Shown in pieces: positions 13,090 to 52,701 of a stretch of DNA of 64,000 nucleotides. The stretch comes from Escherichia coli. GTDB lineage: Bacteria; Pseudomonadota; Gammaproteobacteria; Enterobacterales; Enterobacteriaceae. The stretch lies in NCBI GenBank assembly GCA_902500205.1, contig GCA_902500205.1_4868.1; one strand, given 5' to 3'. The notes beneath the pieces were generated by a model. It was given only the letters and a program-made list of their open reading frames with translations, did not search any database and was not told the DNA's origin. The position numbers were made by a program, and so were the translations under genes. Every line of letters begins with the position of its first letter. Within the stretch, counting starts at the first letter, position 1.

Positions 13090-16000
13090 CTAAGAGGCCC
13101 ACTCACCCGAGTTGTTGCCTTCGTTTCTACGTTCAGTATCCAACGTTTGTAAAATCCAATCCCATGTCCTGGTGGGGATGTGGAATGGATTACGCTTCTC
13201 AATGAGAATCGTTTCGCCACCAGTGCGAAGTTCCACCGGTGTCGTTTCAGTAATCACGAACATCGGATTACCACTACTACCTACGCCATTAATAGTGAAC
13301 TTCGCTTGCAACGGCGGCACAGAACCTTCCGGAGGCACGAACACGATGTGAATTGGCTGCATCGGTTTCGTGCGGGCAAGAGTCCTGGATATCTGAACAG
13401 CTGTTGTCGATGCACTGAAAGGTATAACATTACCCGGAATTTTCTCACTACCCACGATGATATATCCAGGGTAGTTAGAGAGCATTGTCCCATTTACCGA
13501 CACAAAACGCTCAGTTTGAGTTGGGCGATAAGCCCGCATAAAGCCGTACTTCCATTCACCACCGTTAGACGTATAGTCTGCAGGAGCCGACTCAAGTAGC
13601 GGAGCACCACGTTTCTGCAGCCCTTTATAAAACGGCGCTGGGAGTTTACCGTTCGGTGCAAGTTCCGGATAACCCTCACTTGCAGCAGACATCGTGATGT
13701 ATTCCGTAACCGGGTGATCAACGTTATCTCCAAATGACGCAAAAGGTACCGTTGTTACTGTCATCTCCTCGTGGTCGGAAGACTGTCTATCTGGCGTCCT
13801 TTCAATATACGACTCAAACAGTGAACGTAAATAATGGAAACGATTTATATCCACATCTGAGATGATCGGCTGCATCAAACCGTGGTTAATAGTCACGTTG
13901 TCTCGAGTTTCAATACCGGAAACGTGGATGGCTAGCGCCCCACCTTTAAAGTAATCGATCGCATCAAACGGAATGTCGTATTCCATTTCGTAAACCTGCA
14001 CCAGCGGATTGGCTATCAACTTAGAAACCATTGAGATGCGCAGTACCTGCGTATCAACAATGTATCGATAACGTACAAGCCAACGATCTCCAAGCGGCGC
14101 AAGCTCACTATCGGTATGAACCGAAAGAAAATCTAAACACTCGGTAGATTGGCTCGTCAGGTTTTTAATTACCCTCGGATTTTCAAGCACCTTATTTGTA
14201 ACACTGCCCTGCGTGGTCGAGATGATGCCTCCAGTTGCTTGGTTATAAGGAGACCTGATGAAGCCACAATTCAATTCTGGACGATTGCCACTCCATCTCA
14301 GTACCCTAGTCATGCTTTTATCATCTGCAGACGGGGCCATGAAGTTTAATGTGATATCGCGAACGCGAACTGTTTGTGCTTCCGACAAATCAACATCGAC
14401 CACCACAGAACCTTCAAACGTCGCCATCCCTTTTTCTTTCGGGTTGCTTGGTGTAAACCAGCAGTACGGTGATGCGCTTTCTGTGGAGACAACCGCTCCA
14501 ACAAACACTAGGCTTGAAATGGTACTATCAAATTTATAATCGAATAACCCTCGGTCTAATCGAATATAGTGGTTACCAGAAACTGGACTATTAGGGTACG
14601 CATAAAGCCACTGTTTAGGCAACGGATCGACTTTGTTTAGCGGTAACATTTTTGGGTTATCCGTCAACGACCAGTCGGCATTACTCACTCCGTGCGCCAG
14701 ACGTGTTTCGAAGTGCCGTTTAAGTTCGGACGCCATGCCAAAATCAAACGTCGTTTCAAACTCGTAAGTCGTACCTGCAACCAATCCCGTCTCGGGTACA
14801 TCAATATGTCCGATATAGCCGCGTTCCAAGTTAATACCTTCCGTGTCCACAATAGGTTCGGCGCGCGAATATAACGCATCGGTTATCATGTTCACATAGA
14901 GGTAATGCCTTAAACCATTCGGCGTCTTAACAAACTCCTGCAGGCGGGCAACTTTGGTGTTTTTATCCGAGGCCCCAACCGCAAAGTCACCGTCGTAAAT
15001 TGTGAAACGAATTGCGGCTGCTTTAGCGCTATCGTTACACTCGGCACGGAATGCTAAGCAGTGTTGCTTCCACCCCTCCTTGACAGTCGCCTCCAGATAC
15101 CCCGCTTCTGTAATACCCGCACCGATAATTTCACCGTCCAGATAAACAGAAACAGCACCACCGCCACGAACCCAAATCCGTAGTTTACCAGAGTCGCAAC
15201 GAACCCACGTTTTCGCCAAGAGGTTAACGACTGACAAATCACCCATTCCGGTTGTCGTTAAACCAATCTGCGCACCGTAGTTCGTTTCCGGGACGGCAAC
15301 CTCAAACCCACTAAAATCAATACCGTCACCGATATTAATTACCGCGTTCTGCCACGTTCTTTCCATACGGTTATCTGGAGAGAACCACTGGAACATCGGG
15401 GTGGTTTGCAGGTCTATCGAACCAGATACCGTCCCCTCTTTACGTGCACCATTTAACAGATAGAAATAATTCAAATCCGTTACGGCGAGGGTGGTACGTG
15501 TAGATCCCACAGTCCAAGTCTTACCACGCACAGCGGCAAAATCGGTCACGGAATCCTCTTTCGCGTTTGCTAGCGCAGCTGCAACTACGTCTAAACGTTT
15601 TGACAAATCGTTCAGAACGTTCGGGGTAACGCCGCGATTACCCGACAAGCCGTTTAGGTTGGTAGAATATCGAGCGATACCGGGAACTGTTTGAGAAGCC
15701 GTTGGGATCTGTAAATCGGCGAAGTTGTGATGGTGACCTTTATCACTAAGACCGGTAACTGCTTCTGCCAACGCATCAGAAAGTGGTTTATCGACGTCAG
15801 CTGTGTTATCAGCCAAGTCTAAACCTAAATCCTTTTTCGTCAGCGTTCGACTACCAGTGTTCATCGGCTGGTTATTCAGCAGCGTTGTCTTCCTGACGTA
15901 CGAAGACAGGTCGCCCTCATACGGCAAAAGCGCCGACGGGGTGACTGCTTGTCCCTTGACTACATCGCTCGGCTTATCAGTCAGCGTCACAACGCCTGGT

Positions 16001-17220
16001 TCAGAGGTCGTCGCGGGTTTGGCTGTGACCTTCCCGGTGACGGGATCGGCTTTTGACCCTTTACCCGTGAAAGTGATGCCGTTCACCCCGCTAATGTACA
16101 GTTTGTTGTCATCCGGGTCAACGGTACCACCGCCGGTACCAGGGTCTTGTTGATAGCCCATGAGAGCAGTTGTGGTCAGTAACGTCGTGCCATTAAGCGT
16201 CAGCTTATCCATCCCCAAGGCACTGCCAGTCGACTCAATACGTAATGTATTGATGCCTGCTTTCCACTCCATAAACCGGACGGTTCCAGTAGTGTCGGCA
16301 TACCCACACGCCAACACAACAGAGCCATTAGATTTAAGAGTGAATGCCTCAGCAGAGAACACAATTTCGGATTCACCAGCAGGAGAACGGAACAGGGCAC
16401 GAGTACCAGATATCGTCGCGTTAAACACCCCTTTGGATTCTTTCGATACCCATTTAGAAATGTACTTGTCGATATCCGATTGTTGCAGACCCAGTGCACG
16501 GACCTCGCTGGTTAACTGACGCAACGTCTTTCCATACGCCAGGAAAGTATCTGGCGTTTTCAGGTTGACAGGATGCGCACCGGCCTGCGCCGCGGTAGTC
16601 CCATGAGGGTTAGTCGACGCAATGTGTCCGGGGTAGTTAAATGTGGCGATTTCAGTTCCTAAGCCCAAAACCGCATCTTTCAGCTCAGTAAGCTTTTCAC
16701 GAATCTGCTCGTTGGCCGCCCCGGCATCTAACTCCACATCATGCACTGCAGAGGCAACATACTTTTTATTCAGCATGTCTGACCAAGCTACCGCTGCAGG
16801 GGTGGCTGGGTACAGGGAAGGTCGATTACCTAAAAGCAGCCAATCTGCAGCCGTTGGATTGTTGAGTGCCTTAATTAGCTCATCTAACATCTCAATCAAA
16901 CCACTGTAAAACGTACCCCCGAGCATCTGGCCTTCAAAGACCACCGCACCACGCAGTTTAGGGTTAATAAGATGCACCCCGCAAAACACCGGGGTCGTCA
17001 CCGAGTCGTCCAACGGTGTTAAAGCATACTCCAGCTCATAGTCCGTCCCGCGGGTAAGCGGTATGGACGAGCCGGCGAGCCTTACCACCAATCCTTCGAA
17101 AAACGGGCGATGATCTAGCATCACCACCCGATCGTTAGGATTGTCGGAGTCGATGATACGTTCCTCGATGAAGTGACACTCAGGATTTACACCCCGAGGA
17201 TCGTAAGGATACGTTTTCAT
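13090..17220 (-). CDS. Large tail fibre protein (1376 aa)
   Basis: Shared N-terminal module (RGTDYELEY); GHHHNFADLQIP and VPGIARYST motifs; GGAG RBS upstream. Confidence 0.7.
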   Translation of the reverse strand: MKTYPYDPRGVNPECHFIEERIIDSDNPNDRVVMLDHRPFFEGLVVRLAGSSIPLTRGTDYELEYALTPLDDSVTTPVFCGVHLINPKLRGAVVFEGQMLGGTFYSGLIEMLDELIKALNNPTAADWLLLGNRPSLYPATPAAVAWSDMLNKKYVASAVHDVELDAGAANEQIREKLTELKDAVLGLGTEIATFNYPGHIASTNPHGTTAAQAGAHPVNLKTPDTFLAYGKTLRQLTSEVRALGLQQSDIDKYISKWVSKESKGVFNATISGTRALFRSPAGESEIVFSAEAFTLKSNGSVVLACGYADTTGTVRFMEWKAGINTLRIESTGSALGMDKLTLNGTTLLTTTALMGYQQDPGTGGGTVDPDDNKLYISGVNGITFTGKGSKADPVTGKVTAKPATTSEPGVVTLTDKPSDVVKGQAVTPSALLPYEGDLSSYVRKTTLLNNQPMNTGSRTLTKKDLGLDLADNTADVDKPLSDALAEAVTGLSDKGHHHNFADLQIPTASQTVPGIARYSTNLNGLSGNRGVTPNVLNDLSKRLDVVAAALANAKEDSVTDFAAVRGKTWTVGSTRTTLAVTDLNYFYLLNGARKEGTVSGSIDLQTTPMFQWFSPDNRMERTWQNAVINIGDGIDFSGFEVAVPETNYGAQIGLTTTGMGDLSVVNLLAKTWVRCDSGKLRIWVRGGGAVSVYLDGEIIGAGITEAGYLEATVKEGWKQHCLAFRAECNDSAKAAAIRFTIYDGDFAVGASDKNTKVARLQEFVKTPNGLRHYLYVNMITDALYSRAEPIVDTEGINLERGYIGHIDVPETGLVAGTTYEFETTFDFGMASELKRHFETRLAHGVSNADWSLTDNPKMLPLNKVDPLPKQWLYAYPNSPVSGNHYIRLDRGLFDYKFDSTISSLVFVGAVVSTESASPYCWFTPSNPKEKGMATFEGSVVVDVDLSEAQTVRVRDITLNFMAPSADDKSMTRVLRWSGNRPELNCGFIRSPYNQATGGIISTTQGSVTNKVLENPRVIKNLTSQSTECLDFLSVHTDSELAPLGDRWLVRYRYIVDTQVLRISMVSKLIANPLVQVYEMEYDIPFDAIDYFKGGALAIHVSGIETRDNVTINHGLMQPIISDVDINRFHYLRSLFESYIERTPDRQSSDHEEMTVTTVPFASFGDNVDHPVTEYITMSAASEGYPELAPNGKLPAPFYKGLQKRGAPLLESAPADYTSNGGEWKYGFMRAYRPTQTERFVSVNGTMLSNYPGYIIVGSEKIPGNVIPFSASTTAVQISRTLARTKPMQPIHIVFVPPEGSVPPLQAKFTINGVGSSGNPMFVITETTPVELRTGGETILIEKRNPFHIPTRTWDWILQTLDTERRNEGNNSGEWAS

Positions 17221-34810: not shown

Positions 34811-35299
34811 ATGGCCGAAATTGTCATTCTTTCCTCATCTTCAGATTTAACGGAAGCACAAAATAAACAGCTGTTGGGGCTGCATTATAAATTTCTGAAC
34901 CACCAACGTACCATACTCCATATCGAAAAAGGTGAGATTCCGAACCTCACTCTGGAGAAACTGTTGGCGGGGAACCGTGCTTGTGTTGCTCTGGAAGGGG
35001 GTACCCCTGTTGGTTACTGTTTGTATCGCGTAATCGCTGGGGTTCTGAAGATTCGTACGATGTTCGTGTCTGAAATGGCACGCCGTCGCAAAACGATGAC
35101 GCAGATTTTTGATGCGCTTGATGTGAATGAACGGTTCACCAGTGCGCATGGGGGAATATACGCTTGCCAGGAAGCTGGTATTGCGTTCTTTACCGCTCGC
35201 GGTTTTGACAAGACCGTCTCTACCGACGGACAATGGCTTGAATTTACGAAGCAGGTTCTTGCGGAAGCAGATGAACCTTTAAGGACTGCGGTAGCATAG
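34811..35299 (+). CDS. Hypothetical protein (about 162 aa)
   Basis: ORF track 34784..35299; internal start MAEIVIL preferred; no confident motif. Confidence 0.5.
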   Translation: MAEIVILSSSSDLTEAQNKQLLGLHYKFLNHQRTILHIEKGEIPNLTLEKLLAGNRACVALEGGTPVGYCLYRVIAGVLKIRTMFVSEMARRRKTMTQIFDALDVNERFTSAHGGIYACQEAGIAFFTARGFDKTVSTDGQWLEFTKQVLAEADEPLRTAVA

Positions 35300-35324
35300 T
35301 CCTGTTTTAGCACTCCTTACGATT

Positions 35325-35579
35325 ATGCCTCACTATGAGTGGGGTATTTTTACGCGAGGAGTGCTATTTATGTTTCACCGTCCTGGGTTTTCAGCTTTAA
35401 ACACCGATGTCTGTTGGGCTGAGTACGAACGGGTGAAGGAGTTCTTACCCGTAAATCCTAAACACATCAACGTGGGTACTATCGGGCGTGTTGTGTTTGA
35501 TGATACTCCGCTGAGTACGTGTATTAAAGCTGCGCTTGGTACGCTGCCGGCGTCTATAGTTATTGAGGAATTAAAATGA
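35325..35579 (+). CDS. Hypothetical protein (84 aa or shorter)
   Basis: ORF track; start uncertain. Confidence 0.45.
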   Translation: MPHYEWGIFTRGVLFMFHRPGFSALNTDVCWAEYERVKEFLPVNPKHINVGTIGRVVFDDTPLSTCIKAALGTLPASIVIEELK

Positions 35580-36094
35580 CGGACATTCGTGTTGACATAT
35601 ATGGGGAAATTCATACCACGGCCGATCGTAATCGTGTTGAATGGGCGATCATCGATAATCATCGGAAAAAACCATACGATTTTTTACTGTGTGAAGAACT
35701 GGGGCCGTATGAACATCACACTGCAAAAGCGCAAGATAAGGCATTAAAGGAGAAGATGTACTCTATTGGGCCCATGGGGCTGGAGTTGGCTAAGAAACTC
35801 GGCATCCCTGCTATTGGGATCGATGACTGGAGCGACGCAACCTACGCTAAAGATATCAAGGATAAAAAGGGAATGGCTGTAAACTTTAGCCGTTCTTTTT
35901 ATATTCGTGAAACTAAAATGGTTGCAAAAATTAAAAAGTATATGGCAAAAGGGCGTTGTGCTGTTATGCTTGGCGACTCACACTTGCGCACCACGAAAAC
36001 TAAAGAGCTTGGTGATGCGTCCCTTATCTGGGAAACGTTTAAGGATAATCCTGAAGTGAAGTTTCACAGGAGCCCTAAACGCGAGATTGATTAA
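35576..36094 (+). CDS. Hypothetical protein (172 aa)
   Basis: ORF track; start overlaps the upstream stop. Confidence 0.55.
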   Translation: MTDIRVDIYGEIHTTADRNRVEWAIIDNHRKKPYDFLLCEELGPYEHHTAKAQDKALKEKMYSIGPMGLELAKKLGIPAIGIDDWSDATYAKDIKDKKGMAVNFSRSFYIRETKMVAKIKKYMAKGRCAVMLGDSHLRTTKTKELGDASLIWETFKDNPEVKFHRSPKREID

Positions 36095-36112
36095 ATCTAA
36101 AGGAGCATTAAA

Positions 36113-36535
36113 ATGGTTACCGCTATTCGCGAAACAAAATCACTATACGATCATTTATCAGAAGAAGAAACAGCCTTATTCTACGACCTGTTACCTGAAA
36201 CCAAAGCAAATGTTCAGTGGTGGTTACGTTTAGCGCTACGTGATAAAGTTGGGGAAACGCCGGTTAGTATTCTCGCCCACACGTTGGACATGACACCCAT
36301 GATTGAAATCGCGATTACCCGCCCTAAATTCTGGCGGCCTGGTATGGTGCGTGAGGCGTATCTACTCCAACGTTTAGGCGTTGACCCGGAGAAGTGTTGG
36401 CGTAAGATGGATGACCATCGCTACCGTGAAGAAATTACGAATAGCCTCAACACTATGTTGGCAATGAAACGGCTCGGTATCGAACACGAAGGTTTCGAGT
36501 CAGCGGTACATGCCTGGGCGAAAAGGAATAGCTAA
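36113..36535 (+). CDS. Hypothetical protein (140 aa)
   Basis: ORF track; AAGGAGCA RBS. Confidence 0.55.
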   Translation: MVTAIRETKSLYDHLSEEETALFYDLLPETKANVQWWLRLALRDKVGETPVSILAHTLDMTPMIEIAITRPKFWRPGMVREAYLLQRLGVDPEKCWRKMDDHRYREEITNSLNTMLAMKRLGIEHEGFESAVHAWAKRNS

Positions 36536-42772: not shown

Positions 42773-43252
42773 ATGAAGTTATTTTTGGTGGCGATACTGG
42801 TGCTATTGTTGACAGGATGCCCTGGGGTCATCCGTCACGTAGACCCAGATTACTCCTCAACCGGAGATTGGCCTTTTCGTCCTTTAGAACACCCACCAGT
42901 ATATAACGGTGGGAACAGTCCTGAGGCGAAAAAGCTGGCAGGGAAAATGTTTGTTGCGGATGTGAACGCTTATGCTTATTACGTTTATCTGTACGCTAAG
43001 TCAGTAAACAACTATGCAGAAGCTAAAGGGTGGCACACCCCGATGACCGCACCGCTTTGTGAAGAGTTTATTCGCCCCACTCTTCATGGTATACCCTCCG
43101 GGATATATCTCGACCCTGGTTCTCGTAGCCCTCAAGACATTAGTCGTGATTTGTCACGACAGATTAAGTCTCTCATTCGCAGCTATCGCGAAGACAGAGA
43201 GTCTTTTAATCGTGCCTACGAACGGCACAAAAGTAGTTGCCTTGTGCAATGA
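42773..43252 (+). CDS. Lipoprotein (159 aa), possible o-spanin-like partner
   Basis: Signal peptide with lipobox LLTGC; Pro-containing mature part with several Cys; larger than typical o-spanins. Confidence 0.5.
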   Translation: MKLFLVAILVLLLTGCPGVIRHVDPDYSSTGDWPFRPLEHPPVYNGGNSPEAKKLAGKMFVADVNAYAYYVYLYAKSVNNYAEAKGWHTPMTAPLCEEFIRPTLHGIPSGIYLDPGSRSPQDISRDLSRQIKSLIRSYREDRESFNRAYERHKSSCLVQ

Positions 43253-43257
43253 AAACT

Positions 43258-43296
43258 CCCTCTTACCTTCGGGTAAGAGGGGATTTCCTTTTTTAC
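43258..43296 (+). terminator. Rho-independent terminator
   Basis: Hairpin ccctcttacc-ttcg-ggtaagaggg followed by a T-run. Confidence 0.7.
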
Positions 43297-43340
43297 GTTA
43301 GTAGTTAATAGTGTGATATATAATCTCGTGGAGAGTTGAA

Positions 43341-44060
43341 ATGACCTATCCTAAAATTCTGCCTGTTTTAACACCAACCGTGGTTGTTGGGACGGACTTA
43401 GAGACCCTGGCTTTACGTCCAGATGCCTACATCTTAACGTTGGCAAACGTGGCATTCGATGTTCCGACAATGAAAATGATCGGTTCATGTTACCACAAAA
43501 TCGACCCCAATGATGCAAAAGCAAAAGAAATCTTCTACATCGATCCACAAACGGTCGGTTATTGGGAAGGTAAAGGCGACCCCGAATATGCACCGAGCGA
43601 GAAAGCACGTATTGAAGCGTTTTCTGGGACCACTCCACTGCCAGAAGCACTGTGGGCGGCCAAAAAATGGTTGGATGATCTGGGCAACGTGAAAATGGTT
43701 ATCACCATGCGCGGTCCCGATTTCGATGCTCCAATTCTGATGAACGCATTTGCACAGTGCGATATCCCGCCGGGCAAGTACCGCAAGTTTTCTATACTGG
43801 ACTCTGACCGGACTGCAGAACGTATTGCATATGCGTTTGGCCTGGAACCGAACTGGCACGCAGAAGCGCACCATTGGACCCGTGGCAAAGAAGCGTACGA
43901 GCATAACGCTAACTTTGATGCTGCGAAGGAAGCGTATTCTACGGCACGCATCTATCATTTGGCCCTGGTCGCGCGTACGTACGGCTTCGAACGCATGTTA
44001 GAAGCCCACCGCGAAATGTGCACAGGTGAATACATTCCACCGCAGTTGCGAGGAGAATAA
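43341..44060 (+). CDS. DEDDh-type 3'-5' exonuclease-like protein (239 aa), tentative
   Basis: N-terminal VVVGTDLETLAL (D-x-E Exo I-like) and C-terminal HNANFDA (H-x-A-x-x-D Exo III-like) motifs. Confidence 0.5.
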   Translation: MTYPKILPVLTPTVVVGTDLETLALRPDAYILTLANVAFDVPTMKMIGSCYHKIDPNDAKAKEIFYIDPQTVGYWEGKGDPEYAPSEKARIEAFSGTTPLPEALWAAKKWLDDLGNVKMVITMRGPDFDAPILMNAFAQCDIPPGKYRKFSILDSDRTAERIAYAFGLEPNWHAEAHHWTRGKEAYEHNANFDAAKEAYSTARIYHLALVARTYGFERMLEAHREMCTGEYIPPQLRGE

Positions 44061-45574
44061 TGAAAGACGTCGACGTAGCGGTTATTTATACCGATGGTAG
44101 TCATACTGAGTCCCCGAAAGGTTCGGGGGCTGGTATTCATGGTTATTTATTCAACAACGGAGATTTGGAAGACAGTCAGGCTTATAGCCATCCGGGTGTT
44201 TCAGAACGGATTACCACTGTTGGATACAAAAAAGTGCCGCAGGATGTGAAGTGTCCGGAGTTGCCGGACACCGTTCAATTTGTCGACGCCGTTATTCCCG
44301 TTCCGAAAGAGTTCTACTCAGATGTGGGCGAGTTAATCGCCTTCATCACGTTGTTTGAGAACGCGCCCTTCCGCGCGAAGAACTACATCATCTACGTGGA
44401 TGCCAGTTACGTTGTAAACACTTTTAACGAGTGGATAGACGGCTGGCATAAACGTGGTTGGGTTCGTGCTGACGGTACTCCGCTGGCGAACAAAGAACTT
44501 ATTGTTCGTATCTGGGAAATCAAACAGCAGATGAAAAAAGAAGGACGGGGTGTTAAGGTTATCAAAATCAAAGGACACTCCGGCCACTACGGTAACGACC
44601 GGGCGGACGAATTGGCTAGAAAAGGTTCAGCTATCACAGCGACCAACGACGGCGTTCCATATCAGCCGTACTGGTCGAAAGATGAGTTGCCTGCATCCGC
44701 GGAACCCGAGCCCATCGCCGCTGGGATGAACCTTGCGGCATATCCGCCGATTTGTACGGTTAAATATTGCTATCCATTGGTGAACGAGGACCATCCTACT
44801 GTAAAAGTGAAAGATGAAACTTTCTATTACATGTTTGGTGGTAACCATGCAAAGAACAAGGACGACTTGGTGTTTATTGGGAAAATGATTCCTGATGCAC
44901 ACTTTTCCGTAATGTTCACTAAACAACCGTGGGATAACATCTACACGATTGTAAACACCCACGCCGCCCTGGCATGGAAAGATACACCGAAGATGCGGCA
45001 GTATGATCCAATCGGTGTTGTTAACAATGAGTTCGTTAAACGTAAGAAGTTCGTTGATGTGGCAGGTGATGGATTACCGGCAGACAAGATGCATTTCAGT
45101 GGGGAGGATTCTAATGTCTGGTTCTTTGAAGACCTGGCCATCTCCAGAATGCTTCGCCCGCCCTTATTGTCGTACCGTGCGCTGGATATTCGTGACGAAC
45201 TCGCTACAACGTTGCGAGATGTTCTGCATCAGGAAAAGGGTTATGTCTTAAACGATATTACCGACTTGCTATTCGACGACAAAGGTAAACCTGTCAAGGA
45301 ATACTACCGTAGCGTCGATAAGTCAATAACGTTAAAGATTGACTTTCCGATGGGTAAACGACCTGTCTCGGTTATTTTGACTCGCGGTATCGATATTCCA
45401 TCGCGTACGGAAATCAACCGTATTAAAGAACCGGAAGGCCGTTATTACATCGCGGTGTGTCGTCCTGAAAAATACTACATCCGTTACTTCTTAATCTATA
45501 TCGGTAAAGAGTATCATGGGTTGTGGTGTGCGTATTACGCAAACCGTCGCATACTGCGAGAAGAAGAGGTGTAA
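44060..45574 (+). CDS. RNase HI-domain protein with about 350-aa C-terminal extension (504 aa)
   Basis: N-terminal VAVIYTDGS and downstream KIKGHSGHYGNDRADELARKG match RNase H catalytic motifs; stop/start overlap (TAATG) with the upstream exonuclease gene. Confidence 0.8.
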   Translation: MKDVDVAVIYTDGSHTESPKGSGAGIHGYLFNNGDLEDSQAYSHPGVSERITTVGYKKVPQDVKCPELPDTVQFVDAVIPVPKEFYSDVGELIAFITLFENAPFRAKNYIIYVDASYVVNTFNEWIDGWHKRGWVRADGTPLANKELIVRIWEIKQQMKKEGRGVKVIKIKGHSGHYGNDRADELARKGSAITATNDGVPYQPYWSKDELPASAEPEPIAAGMNLAAYPPICTVKYCYPLVNEDHPTVKVKDETFYYMFGGNHAKNKDDLVFIGKMIPDAHFSVMFTKQPWDNIYTIVNTHAALAWKDTPKMRQYDPIGVVNNEFVKRKKFVDVAGDGLPADKMHFSGEDSNVWFFEDLAISRMLRPPLLSYRALDIRDELATTLRDVLHQEKGYVLNDITDLLFDDKGKPVKEYYRSVDKSITLKIDFPMGKRPVSVILTRGIDIPSRTEINRIKEPEGRYYIAVCRPEKYYIRYFLIYIGKEYHGLWCAYYANRRILREEEV

Positions 45575-45575
45575 C

Positions 45576-46316
45576 ATGTTGCGAGTCGTGAGTGAATCGC
45601 TCACGCTCCACACACAAAGTCTGATTAACTGTGTGGAGCAATACGGATGGATGTCGTGGATGGCAACGAACCGTGAGTTTGGTGCTGCGCCCATGGAAGA
45701 TTACGACCTGTTGTACAAGTGGGGATTTGAGGCGGCTTGTGATGTTGTGGCGGAACTGGTTACTGAAACAATTGCGCGTTACAATGCAAGATGTGACGAA
45801 CCGATGCCCAAACAAGTCCCACCGCAAATACCTCCGCTACCGACAATCGATCGTGAGCATTGTCGTATCTGGACAATGGAAGAGTTGTACGACGAACACG
45901 TTAGAATGCTGAAACCGAACGAGCTAATAACCGGTGCGTTGAACTGGTTCTTACATCGTTTCTGGACAGAGTTGGTCGATGTGGCGGGTGACGAAGATAA
46001 CTGTTCTCAGGTTATTTGGTACGATCGAGCGATGTTTCATCGCAGTCTTAAAGATCGTAGTCTGTGCAACTTGTATATTGTTAACCCGTGTGAAGACATT
46101 GTAAGGGTAGCAGAAGGTAACTCTTATTCCGACTTGGTGATACCTGTGGTAGAGAAACCGATGGGTATTTTCCTGCAGGGAGACGCTTGGGTTTTAACGG
46201 ATGATATCTCGGGCTACCTGCTGGACCCGGATGACATTCACTCGGACGAACCTGATACCATCGAGTATTTTCACTTTACAGAACAGGCAGCACGCTTCTT
46301 GCATCTCTTAAAGTAA
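45576..46316 (+). CDS. Hypothetical protein (about 246 aa)
   Basis: ORF track 45516..46316; start moved to first ATG after the upstream stop (MLRVVSES). Confidence 0.55.
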   Translation: MLRVVSESLTLHTQSLINCVEQYGWMSWMATNREFGAAPMEDYDLLYKWGFEAACDVVAELVTETIARYNARCDEPMPKQVPPQIPPLPTIDREHCRIWTMEELYDEHVRMLKPNELITGALNWFLHRFWTELVDVAGDEDNCSQVIWYDRAMFHRSLKDRSLCNLYIVNPCEDIVRVAEGNSYSDLVIPVVEKPMGIFLQGDAWVLTDDISGYLLDPDDIHSDEPDTIEYFHFTEQAARFLHLLK

Positions 46317-46369: not shown

Positions 46370-47104
46370 ATGCTTAAAGTCGAAGTGCCAGTGCTTTTAA
46401 ACCTCACGCCCCAGTTCTTTGAAGCGTTGTTCGAAAAGCATTGGCCCGCGTTCGCGAAGAACGAACTAAAGGATAACCCACAGTGGTATCCACTGCGCGA
46501 TGAATTCAAGTACACAGCCATCAACGTCTGTATAGAAGTCTTCACTGCGTGGTTACAAGAGATGTACGACTGCATCAACACCGAACGGTTGTTCACGCTA
46601 GAACATGTAGAGATTAATGTTGTTGACGTCTACGAAGGTTACACCTACGAAGAGGGCATTACTGCCACGGGGTTAAGCCAACAAGACGTTGAAGAACAAA
46701 TCTTTGCGTGGATCGAGTGGTTTACGGAAAAGTTGATGCTGGCTGATTTTGTCACGCAGGTGGAAGATGTATTCATCCCAATGTACGAGCGGTTAGCTGA
46801 GATACGTCGTAACCATCGACTGCTCGGTTACTGGTATGACACTTATACCACCTCCTCAACACTGTGGTCTTCCGCTACTGCCGCATTTGGCATAACTGAT
46901 GGCGATTACGATGTCGTTCATTCCGGCCCTTGGCAGTATGGTTTCGGCACCCTGTGGCACGAGCTGACCGATGCCATGTGTCTGGACTTTTATCTGTGTG
47001 AAGGTAAGTTTTACACGGATAACTGCGTGAGCCAAATTCCGAATGGTGCGATGGTGGTGATGTGTCGCATCCGTAAAGAAGTCTCTGAGAAACTAAACTA
47101 CTGA
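46370..47104 (+). CDS. Hypothetical protein (244 aa)
   Basis: ORF track; AAGGAG RBS. Confidence 0.6.
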   Translation: MLKVEVPVLLNLTPQFFEALFEKHWPAFAKNELKDNPQWYPLRDEFKYTAINVCIEVFTAWLQEMYDCINTERLFTLEHVEINVVDVYEGYTYEEGITATGLSQQDVEEQIFAWIEWFTEKLMLADFVTQVEDVFIPMYERLAEIRRNHRLLGYWYDTYTTSSTLWSSATAAFGITDGDYDVVHSGPWQYGFGTLWHELTDAMCLDFYLCEGKFYTDNCVSQIPNGAMVVMCRIRKEVSEKLNY

Positions 47105-49064: not shown

Positions 49065-49988
49065 ATGGACAGCTTTCTTTTTGATTTGGCAGAATCGGTA
49101 AATGTAGATGTAATCGGTATGCGCGAATCCCCGAGTAATTTCTTAAACGGTCTTACTAAAATCGACGAACGTGTGAAATCCAGAAGTGGAGATCCCGCCA
49201 TCATCGAGCAATACGCAATAGCCCATTGTGGCGAGATAGGCCAGCACTTTATACCGATTGAGGCGTTCCTAAAGAACTGCTTCGCCGAAGAATGCACCGC
49301 AGACTTCCTGTCTCTTGCCTACGGCTGGCGATACGGGGGTATCCAAATGGAATTTGATCTTAATATTTTTGAACAAGTTCTACTTGGCGACGTTCTCACT
49401 GAGATACCACGCAGCTGGATAGACAAGATTCCCGGTTGGGCCGTCTCCTTTTCAGTGTGCTATCGCGCTAAAGATATCGGTATCCAAGAAAAGACTTACG
49501 TTTTCGGTCGGCGAATGTTTAAAGGGAAAGATTGTTTAACAATGATGATTTTTGGAAAACGTATCGAGGGGGAAACCTTTGAAATCGTGGACGTGGGTGA
49601 CGGCTTTGTATCCTTGCGTGTGGCGGAAACTGGTACGCCGGCCAATGAGAAAACGTTACGCATTGTCGGCGCTACCATGTTTACATTCTCACTGATCCCG
49701 CACAACCCTACACCCGTCAAACTGAGACAATTAACTGGAAAGAAACGTATCGCCAATTACCACATTGAACCAAAATCTAAACCGACTGTCCTCTCCACCG
49801 TAAAAGCACAAAGCGAGTATCTTGAAGAATTTGATACTGATACGGAGAAAAGAACACAAGGTAGCAGATGTGCGCATATGCGTCGTGCACACTGGTGTAC
49901 TTACTGGCTCGGTCCACGTGACGGGAATCGGACAAAGATTTTGAAATGGATACCGCCGACATTTGTCAACGGTTCTAAATGCAAATAA
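49065..49988 (+). CDS. Hypothetical protein (307 aa)
   Basis: ORF track; AAGGAG RBS. Confidence 0.6.
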   Translation: MDSFLFDLAESVNVDVIGMRESPSNFLNGLTKIDERVKSRSGDPAIIEQYAIAHCGEIGQHFIPIEAFLKNCFAEECTADFLSLAYGWRYGGIQMEFDLNIFEQVLLGDVLTEIPRSWIDKIPGWAVSFSVCYRAKDIGIQEKTYVFGRRMFKGKDCLTMMIFGKRIEGETFEIVDVGDGFVSLRVAETGTPANEKTLRIVGATMFTFSLIPHNPTPVKLRQLTGKKRIANYHIEPKSKPTVLSTVKAQSEYLEEFDTDTEKRTQGSRCAHMRRAHWCTYWLGPRDGNRTKILKWIPPTFVNGSKCK

Positions 49989-51207: not shown

Positions 51208-52701
51208 ATGGCAGGTCCAGCTAAACAAGTCATGGGTGAAGTGATTCGCCCTCGTTTTAACGTATATACCATCATGGACCACGCTCTCGGTAACTACGAG
51301 CGCGGGGAAGATGGTTTGTACTACCTCAACGGTGGTTTTGCCCACATCATGGGCTTCGCAGGTCGTGGGAACACTTTTAAGTCTACCTTATTAGACTTCT
51401 GCATTTTCATGATTCTGCAACGTTATAATGCGGCCTGGGGATCGAAATACGATACCGAAGTTACGGCAGCATTAAGTCGTCTGGAAACAGGGTACATTTC
51501 CGCAGCGAAAGCAAACGGATTAGAAGTATCACCAACAGGCGGCGTGCTGGACCTGATCCACGAAGGTCGTTACAACATGGTTGGCTCGGATATCATGGCA
51601 GGTGAAGAATATTACTCTGCCTATATTCGTGATGAAGTCGAAAAACGTTTCAAAGAGTATATGGCTGGTAAGGCACGCGAAACACCATTCCCTGACCCAA
51701 TCCGTCGCTCTGCGAAAAAGATTCTCGACCCGTGGTTGTACTCGATTGACTCCCTGTCCGAATGGCACACCTCTTCTCTGGAAGAGAAACATGCCAAATC
51801 AGAAGTCGGTGATTCTGAACAGAACATCCTGAACGCCCATGATGCCCTGCAGAAATCGAATATGATGAGCCGTTGGCCGTCTGCGTTTGCGCGTGGTGGT
51901 TTCTATATGGGCTTCGTTGCTCAGTTGGCCGACGATGCGGGTAAAGCAATGGCGGCAGGTGGCCGTGGTGGACCGAAGGCGAACGGTAAACTGTTGGACG
52001 ATGCAGGCGATGATCTGAAGTTTGCTGGTATCCCGCGTCGTCAGTTGTCGTTCTTAACTAACTCCCTGCTGGTTGCAACCAAGTCTGGTGAGTTGAAGCA
52101 GGATCAGACTTACAACGCGAAGACCGGTGTAAACGAAGAGAAATACCCGACTGCGCGTTCGAAAGCAATGAATGCTTCGGTGAACGACCTGAAAGAAATC
52201 GTGTTCACACAGTACCGTGCGAAGGGTGGTCACACAGGCGTTAAGTTCAAAATGGTCTTCTCACAGGAGATGGGTCTGCTTTATCACCTCTCTCTGTGGC
52301 ATTACCTGAGCGACACACTGAAAGATGAATGGGGCTACAAACGTAGTGGTGCTAACTATACCCTCGATTTGCTACCTGGTACATCTTTCATGCGTACCAC
52401 GATTCGCGACATGTGTGACAGCAACCCGCGTTTGCGCCGTGCGTTGGAAATCACCGCCGCATTAGCGTACATGCAGAATAACTACCACCGACTGGAAATG
52501 AAATACCATCTCTCACCGGCGGAGCTTTATAAAGTTATCGACGAAAAGTGGGACTGGAATGAAATTCTGGACAATACAGTGGAATACTGGATGTTCAAGG
52601 ATCAGGAAGTCAAAGGTGGTAAGCGTTGCTTAACAGCAATGTCATTACTGGCGATGGCCGTGGATGGTCTGGAACCTAAGTTCTTGACTAAGAAGAAATA
52701 A
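51208..52701 (+). CDS. Hypothetical protein (497 aa)
   Basis: ORF track; contains GFAGRGNTFKST, which may be a degenerate P-loop; not assigned. Confidence 0.6.
   Translation: MAGPAKQVMGEVIRPRFNVYTIMDHALGNYERGEDGLYYLNGGFAHIMGFAGRGNTFKSTLLDFCIFMILQRYNAAWGSKYDTEVTAALSRLETGYISAAKANGLEVSPTGGVLDLIHEGRYNMVGSDIMAGEEYYSAYIRDEVEKRFKEYMAGKARETPFPDPIRRSAKKILDPWLYSIDSLSEWHTSSLEEKHAKSEVGDSEQNILNAHDALQKSNMMSRWPSAFARGGFYMGFVAQLADDAGKAMAAGGRGGPKANGKLLDDAGDDLKFAGIPRRQLSFLTNSLLVATKSGELKQDQTYNAKTGVNEEKYPTARSKAMNASVNDLKEIVFTQYRAKGGHTGVKFKMVFSQEMGLLYHLSLWHYLSDTLKDEWGYKRSGANYTLDLLPGTSFMRTTIRDMCDSNPRLRRALEITAALAYMQNNYHRLEMKYHLSPAELYKVIDEKWDWNEILDNTVEYWMFKDQEVKGGKRCLTAMSLLAMAVDGLEPKFLTKKK

Follow-up and report, generated by a model that had tools for sequence, protein, structure and literature searches.

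A probable RNase H-clamp gene of an SPN3US-type jumbo phage and the conserved gene for a predicted exonuclease that overlaps it

Within a stretch of 64,000 nucleotides deposited as Escherichia coli DNA (assembly GCA_902500205.1, contig GCA_902500205.1_4868.1), here called the window, two open reading frames (ORFs) lie on the plus strand at 43341-44060 and 44060-45574 and share a single nucleotide. The second one codes for a protein of 504 amino acids, in which the motifs of a ribonuclease H (RNase H) are followed by about 320 residues of no obvious type, and the first one codes for a predicted DEDDh exonuclease of 239 amino acids. This raises the question of which role is played by the C-terminal residues, and whether the two nucleases belong together. 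In an earlier note on this DNA, both ORFs and their TAATG overlap had been described, which were recovered at the same positions, and the pair had been interpreted as a nucleic-acid-processing module. Based on the analysis presented here, the gene for the 504-residue protein is very probably the SPN3US-type rhc gene, encoding the RNase H-clamp protein Rhc and working as has been published for the phages PhiKZ and Goslar. The gene and its parts are the following:

44060-45574, plus strand: rhc gene, RNase H-clamp (SPN3US gp207), 504 amino acids; orthologue of PhiKZ gp155/Nlp2 and of Goslar Rhc
44060-44650, plus strand: RNase HI domain, residues 1-197, with the catalytic residues D12, E91, D114, D183 and H173
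Inside Rhc's RNase HI domain: basic-protrusion motif WIDGWHKRGWVRADGTPLANKEL
44651-44764, plus strand: predicted flexible linker, residues about 198-235, the part of the model with the lowest confidence
44765-45571, plus strand: sliding-clamp-like domain, residues about 236-504, predicted to bind DNA and polymerase
45536-45556, plus strand: C-terminal tail Y493-x3-R497-I498-L499, aligning with the polymerase-binding residues I479 of PhiKZ Rhc and Y505 of Goslar Rhc

The window was identified as phage DNA with 98.7% DNA identity to Salmonella phage SPN3US (Seoulvirus, 240 kb). The 504-residue protein is 100% identical to SPN3US gp207, annotated as 'putative ribonuclease H', and the 239-residue protein is 100% identical to SPN3US gp206, annotated as 'putative endodeoxyribonuclease'. 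The nearest relatives infect Salmonella, Escherichia, Proteus, Erwinia, Cronobacter and Vibrio. A clade of nucleus-forming phages devoid of PhuZ ('phuzzywuzzyvirus', Chimalliviridae) has been described with a matching list of hosts (PMC11724907), and for one of its members, Erwinia phage Asesino, the phage nucleus has been demonstrated.

For the 504-residue protein, the sole match in Pfam was RNase_H (PF00075, residues 89-190, E 8e-22), and the structural matches of the N-terminal domain were RNase HI proteins and the RNase H domains of reverse transcriptases. A flap endonuclease (FEN)/5'-3' exonuclease domain was found neither by Pfam nor among the structural matches. The earlier note had set the protein apart from the FEN-type RNase H of phage T4, and this distinction holds. 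The catalytic residues D12, E91, D114, H173 and D183 are all present, and D114 aligns with D102 of PhiKZ and D119 of Goslar. The RNase HI equivalogs of NCBIfam scored far under their cut-off (70 bits versus 160). The RNase H domain was noticed to contain an insertion of about 40 residues after strand 2 and before strand 3 (residues about 32-72, 44153-44275), which is modelled with high confidence, occurs in most Rhc homologues and is absent from cellular RNase HI. E. coli RNase HI (RnhA) and the catalytic domain of human RNase H1 contain neither this insertion nor the C-terminal fusion of 300 residues. For Goslar, a separate and dispensable RNase H of the T4 type has been reported in addition (PMC13648698). 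In the Rhc of Vibrio phage pVa-21 (3464-4888 of record L007), most of the N-terminal RNase H strands and the insertion are missing, while the aligned RNase H residues D, E, D, H and D are kept.

The C-terminal part had been described in the earlier note as free of obvious motifs, and a search with residues 201-504 bore this out, with zero Pfam matches even at E<=10 and zero NCBIfam matches; no clamp family of Pfam matched the domain. Structure prediction, which had been proposed as a check, resolved the protein into the RNase HI domain, a linker of low confidence and a C-terminal domain modelled as a clamp fold. In the full-length model, the predicted local distance difference test score (pLDDT) of the linker drops as low as 54 over residues 211-220, with values <50 at 210-214, and the predicted template modelling score (pTM) is 0.57 despite a mean pLDDT of 89.6. 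This fits the pattern expected for two domains with independent predicted orientations. In structure comparisons, the closest folds to the C-terminal domain were subunits of ring-forming clamps, with an identity of 4-12%. On the basis of the model, the fold of the C-terminal domain is that of a sliding clamp.

This domain was also found in other jumbo phages. Foldseek against viral models identified it at the C-terminus of proteins of 450-560 amino acids annotated as 'ribonuclease H'. An exhaustive HMMER search of 1.84 billion proteins with the C-terminal domain alone resulted in 152 clusters, and since nearly all of these are proteins of 450-560 amino acids which match at their C-terminus, the fusion of RNase H and clamp is fixed. 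Three homologues, P0126, P0145 and P0158, were considered as free-standing clamp domains and were rejected, since they start in the middle of the domain or with the last part of an RNase H domain and are likely truncated gene calls. In one protein of the same library, P0099 with 2050 amino acids, the clamp domain was matched in six separate stretches (E 2e-13); this may be a mis-assembly or a fusion containing repeats. Among 45 full-length homologues, 12 positions of the clamp domain are K or R in at least 43, and in the tail R497 is conserved in 44/45, I498 in 35/45 (the rest being L, F or V) and L499 in 43/45.

The orthology with PhiKZ gp155 and Goslar Rhc extends over the entire protein. 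PHROG family 3265 (phrog_3265) spans the 504 residues end to end (E 1e-189), and the 45 full-length homologues have a mean column identity of 49%. By BLASTP, residues 5-493 were aligned to residues 3-475 of PhiKZ gp155 with 26% identity (E 4e-38), and the protein is covered by a six-way alignment which includes the proteins of Goslar, RAY, CR5 and pVa-21. PhiKZ gp155 (482 amino acids) and Goslar Rhc (508 amino acids) have the same two-domain architecture and the same catalytic residues, and share with the SPN3US-type protein the clamp-like C-terminal domain, the gene neighbourhood and, judged from the alignment, probably the hydrophobic C-terminal tail, with 24-28% identity in the full-length alignment. 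The C-terminal domain alone also matches genes annotated as ribonuclease H in PhiKZ-like phages, RAY, PCH45 and RSL2. For Goslar, the published number gp190 differs from the GenBank locus tags; Goslar Rhc is Goslar_00246.

A similar organization of the surrounding genes was identified as well. A homologue of the virion gene of PhiKZ gp157 (E 6e-57) is located divergently upstream, followed by two small genes and then rhc. Further on, at 51208-52701, an ORF of 497 amino acids is homologous to PhiKZ gp152 (Nlp1, a RecA/UvsX-like nuclear protein) with 30% identity (E 1e-50), for which no Pfam match was obtained at E<=0.01, and a gene for an RNA-polymerase subunit comes after it. The same layout is present in PhiKZ, SL2, RAY, Goslar, CR5 and pVa-21.

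For PhiKZ, gp155 was shown to be a protein of the core genome, and its knock-down stops maturation of the nucleus and amplification of the genome, while complementation is retained with the catalytic mutant D102N (PMC12571901). The name Rhc for RNase H-clamp originates from two preprints of October 2026 (PMC13648687, PMC13648698). PhiKZ DNAP-N (gp82), DNAP-C (gp50) and Rhc were solved by cryo-electron microscopy (cryo-EM) both in the presence of DNA and in its absence, and the structures revealed that the emerging duplex is gripped by one Rhc clamp domain together with the thumb of the polymerase; primer extension was boosted by Rhc (PMC13648687). Mutants of Rhc affected in DNA binding or in assembly lose the stimulation of the polymerase (PMC13648687, PMC13648698). 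In Goslar, the clamp domain binds DNAP-C and DNA, and both replication and some of the late transcription depend on it, with a partial contribution of the RNase H activity (PMC13648698). The main essential function in PhiKZ and Goslar was assigned to the clamp domain and not to the nuclease, namely the boosting of the split DNA polymerase (PMC13648687, PMC13648698, PMC12571901).

By analogy to these phages, SPN3US-type Rhc would bind transiently, as a third subunit, to the split DNA polymerase of the B family which is found in nucleus-forming jumbo phages (Chimalliviridae). A single Rhc would dock by its clamp domain on the thumb of the polymerase and hold the newly made duplex DNA, and this docking would raise the activity of the polymerase and probably its processivity. 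The tethered RNase H could then cut RNA annealed to the incoming template. In the published work such template-annealed RNA (R-loops) is the favoured target, and the primer removal which the earlier note had proposed is not the role put forward there. Fold, homology, synteny and residue conservation are findings on the SPN3US-type protein, and binding of polymerase, binding of DNA and RNase H activity would be expected from PhiKZ and Goslar. The residues reported to bind the polymerase are M346, F478 and I479 in PhiKZ and S272, L363, W365, Y505 and L507 in Goslar (PMC13648687, PMC13648698). In the alignment, Goslar L363 and PhiKZ M346 correspond to L370, Goslar W365 to Y372, and Goslar Y505 and PhiKZ I479 to I498; L370, Y372 and I498 are all conserved across the family of 45 sequences. 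For the DNA contacts of Goslar, three out of five correspond to basic residues, with R233 aligned to K235, K259 to K265 and R318 to K329.

Several points weigh against this assignment. Unlike in PhiKZ gp155 and Goslar Rhc, some of the DNA-contact and interface positions are changed: PhiKZ F478 is aligned to R496, Goslar L507 to R500 and Goslar S272 to P278, and the Goslar DNA contacts K262 and R264 are aligned to the non-basic D268 and L270, with K267 adjacent to D268, although such a mapping of residues is uncertain at 24-28% identity. No polymerase subunit was found when PhiKZ gp50 and gp82 were compared by tblastn to the 64-kb window. Because DNAP-N and DNAP-C were not found in the window, the partnership of Rhc with the polymerase is proposed at the level of the genome type only, with a DNAP-C (PhiKZ gp50) homologue in SPN3US-type genomes of 34% identity and 99% coverage (E ~1e-133). 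With PhiKZ chimallin as tblastn query, no SPN3US-type genome was matched at E 1e-5. Chimallin is too diverged for detection by tblastn in these genomes, and because of this negative result the placement of the SPN3US type in Chimalliviridae rests on PMC11724907 and on other shared genes. Further, no published paper was found which names SPN3US gp206 or gp207, the published biochemistry being confined to PhiKZ and Goslar. The work on these two phages also disagrees on the need for RNase H catalysis, so that its importance in the SPN3US type cannot be predicted.

Two other roles were considered for the C-terminal domain. The earlier note had suggested that it targets or regulates the nuclease, and it might mainly serve as a signal for nuclear import or as a regulator of the RNase H. 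In Goslar, the isolated clamp domain is indeed nuclear and the isolated RNase H domain is not (PMC13648698), and PhiKZ gp155 (Nlp2) needs Imp1/PicA to enter the phage nucleus (bioRxiv 10.1101/2024.03.27.586873). However, the clamp fold and the conserved basic and polymerase-contact residues point in another direction, as do the position of the domain on the thumb in the cryo-EM structures, where it holds the duplex, and the loss of stimulation in the mutants; moreover, import and polymerase binding can coexist. A mainly targeting or regulatory role is therefore considered quite improbable. From the earlier suggestion it stands that the domain places the RNase H where it is active, while its main role would be a clamp-derived binding of DNA and polymerase and not that of a regulator. 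The other role is that of a conventional clamp fused to RNase H, which would form a closed ring encircling the DNA like PCNA or gp45. The ring-forming subunits among the closest folds would agree with this, as would the fact that a separate clamp gene has not been identified in chimalliviruses (PMC13648687). However, Rhc is reported to be devoid of oligomerisation elements, with one Rhc per polymerase in the cryo-EM structures (PMC13648687), and a clamp-loader is not known in chimalliviruses, which makes a closed ring very improbable indeed.

The preferred assignment as a clamp-derived polymerase subunit is best described by comparison to known systems. The subunits of the 9-1-1 clamp (Hus1, Mec3, Rad9, Rad1), PCNA, gp45 of T4 and RB69 and the bacterial beta clamp, with their identity of 4-12% to the C-terminal domain, are closed rings loaded by clamp-loaders, whereas Rhc reportedly functions as one subunit only. 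The processivity factors of herpesviruses, UL42 (herpes simplex virus 1), UL44 (human cytomegalovirus), PF-8 (Kaposi's sarcoma-associated herpesvirus) and BMRF1 (Epstein-Barr virus), lack an RNase H domain, and a similarity to Rhc is not detectable in their sequences. UL42 holds its polymerase stably, whereas the binding of Rhc is reported to be transient.

The second question concerns the gene upstream of rhc, for which the following features were identified:

43257-43292, plus strand: terminator-like hairpin with an 11-bp stem, a TTCG loop and a T-rich tail, found by a pattern scan as a consensus match
43330-43335, plus strand: ribosome-binding site GGAGAG of the exonuclease gene
43341-44060, plus strand: gene for a predicted DEDDh 3'-5' exonuclease (SPN3US gp206), 239 amino acids, Rv2179c/T4 DexA family
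44050-44062, plus strand: exonuclease/rhc junction, with a GAGGAG Shine-Dalgarno sequence within the last bases of the exonuclease gene, followed by the TAATG stop/start overlap (1 nucleotide)

The prediction of a DEDDh exonuclease at this position had been made in the earlier note and is in line with the family assignment. The 239-residue protein matches Pfam PF16473 (Rv2179c-like 3'-5' exonuclease) with 35.3 bits against a gathering cut-off of 27 (E 1.2e-8), residues 18-198 being aligned to positions 5-170 of the 177 profile positions, and it is matched by phrog_255 'exonuclease' with E 8e-53; in NCBIfam, zero matches were obtained. The DEDDh residues are D19 and E21 in Exo I (D-x-E), D129 in Exo II and H188-x4-D193 in Exo III. 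Their conservation is 90% or more among 23 homologues, and they are identical in six out of six divergent ones. T4 DexA (227 amino acids) itself belongs to PF16473 (79.9 bits, E 2.4e-22) and has the DEDDh residues and a similar size in common with the 239-residue protein. When the profile of the exonuclease was aligned to T4 DexA by hhalign, Exo I and Exo II were aligned (E 6.5e-5, probability 64%). A phmmer search of PDB sequences gave a best E of 0.2, and the profile of 23 sequences against PDB gave RNase T alone (E 0.59), a weak match used as a check of the motifs, in which Exo II and III align. By its sequence, the 239-residue protein is thus placed in the Rv2179c/T4 DexA family of DEDDh 3'-5' exonucleases. 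The similarity to T4 DexA and Mycobacterium tuberculosis Rv2179c is only remote, and the gene differs from theirs by its fixed position upstream of rhc. The annotation of T4 DexA is that of a 3'-5' DNA exonuclease which takes part in the breakdown of host DNA, and Rv2179c, after which PF16473 is named, is a 3'-5' exoribonuclease. The best guess is that the exonuclease would trim or degrade short 3' ends of nucleic acids.

At the junction, positions 44056-44062 read ATAATGA, and the final A of the TAA stop codon (44058-44060) is also the A of the rhc start codon ATG (44060-44062), with the GAGGAG of rhc at 44050-44055, four bases 5' of the ATG. The hairpin, which is a strong one (placed at 43257-43282 or 43257-43292) and symmetric on both strands, is located past the preceding gene (42773-43252) and before the exonuclease gene; judged from its sequence, it probably closes the preceding transcription unit and marks the start of the exonuclease-rhc unit. 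The gene 3' of rhc starts two bases past the rhc stop codon, which together with the hairpin suggests one transcription unit. In the PhuZ-less clade, the exonuclease gene is probably cotranscribed with rhc and translationally coupled to it. For the gene 3' of rhc, the longest ORF (45516-46316) would reach 59 nucleotides back into the end of rhc; the RefSeq start is the equivalent of 45576, giving a product of 246 amino acids without a Pfam match. A Pfam search of the neighbouring genes at 45576-46313, 46370-47101, 42773-43249, 49065-49985 and 51208-52698 gave nothing useful.

By tblastn, the exonuclease gene was identified in 81 phage records. Besides a few weak matches in small phages, these are all types of the PhuZ-less clade, comprising those of Salmonella, Erwinia, Cronobacter, Escherichia and Proteus phages and of Vibrio phage pVa-21, so that the gene may be a marker of this clade ('phuzzywuzzyvirus'). 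In all 12 records for which both coordinates were listed, from SPN3US to pVa-21, it is located directly upstream of rhc, with an identity of the exonuclease down to 33%, and the same adjacency was found in three out of three distant metagenome contigs, the Rhc proteins of which are 38-47% identical. The overlap of stop and start was kept in five of the six junctions examined (1, 14, 4, 1 and 1 nucleotides), with a gap of 166 nucleotides in pVa-21 instead. The overlapping DEDDh exonuclease gene 5' of rhc is restricted to the SPN3US-type clade; in PhiKZ, SL2, RAY and Goslar, no exonuclease gene is present next to rhc. In the surrounding 20 kb, 7 of the 24 same-strand neighbour pairs have an overlapping stop and start, and the core blocks of chimalliviruses keep their gene order in general (PMC12908238). 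Because core-block order is conserved and overlaps are common, adjacency and overlap are not specific to functional coupling.

Other PF16473 genes are found at unrelated positions in related phages. Goslar_00147 (34993-36222 of record L009) encodes 409 amino acids with the domain in residues 211-393, and no tblastn cross-hit to the 239-residue exonuclease was obtained. RAY gp064 (15675-16427 of record L017) encodes a PF16473 protein of 250 amino acids, which is annotated as 'exodeoxyribonuclease VIII' though it is a DEDDh protein, and was reported to be cytoplasmic (PMC10299810). RAY gp064 was considered as an orthologue of the 239-residue exonuclease and rejected: both are members of the same Pfam family, but the hhalign probability was 3% and tblastn gave no cross-hits.

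For the function of the exonuclease, two explanations have to be weighed. It could make up a genuine module of two enzymes together with Rhc in the PhuZ-less clade, in which Rhc would nick hybrid RNA in the phage nucleus and the exonuclease would degrade the released RNA or trim 3' ends at the replisome. The adjacency in 12/12 phage records and 3/3 contigs, the overlap at 5/6 junctions, the conserved DEDDh residues and the exoribonuclease Rv2179c within PF16473 are all consistent with this. However, Rhc of PhiKZ, SL2, RAY and Goslar works without an adjoining exonuclease gene, conserved core-block order and frequent overlaps deprive the arrangement of its specificity, and the PF16473 exonuclease of RAY is reported to be cytoplasmic. 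A module of this kind is therefore seen as unlikely, and the reading of the earlier note in this respect is not borne out, the pairing being conserved in one clade and giving weak evidence for functional coupling. On the other hand, the exonuclease could be a DexA-like accessory enzyme which acts independently of Rhc, degrading oligonucleotides of DNA or RNA in order to salvage nucleotides or to break down host nucleic acids, and which simply occupies the place upstream of rhc; this has about an even chance of being correct. It would agree with the membership of T4 DexA in PF16473, its annotation and the alignment of Exo I and Exo II, and with the sporadic PF16473 genes elsewhere in Goslar and RAY. 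However, the strict position and overlap with rhc throughout the clade exceed what would be expected for a drifting gene, and the proteins of RAY and Goslar are only remotely related.

The region was also compared among the SPFM records LR535901, LR535903-LR535908, LR535911-LR535913 and LR535917, several of which match it only as about 35 short pieces. The 'hypothetical proteins' given by the fragmented records (P0035-37, P0047, P0070-75) are scrambled, a sign of assemblies full of errors and not of real variants.

Until very recently, the role of the about 320 unexplained residues of these proteins was a real open problem. This puzzle of the C-terminus was solved by the recent work, in which a clamp-derived subunit provides nucleus-forming jumbo phages with their 'missing sliding clamp'. 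What is added here is the SPN3US-type member of the Rhc family and the conserved exonuclease gene which overlaps it, and which was not described in the literature found. There is a small chance that the exonuclease joins Rhc and the polymerase as a fourth component, specific to this clade, of their machine in the SPN3US, Asesino, CR5 and pVa-21 types, where it would finish the work of the RNase H by degrading RNA fragments derived from hybrids or by trimming 3' ends. If the exonuclease works with Rhc, it would provide an extra component for an unusual replisome; otherwise, it would be an ordinary DexA-like accessory gene.

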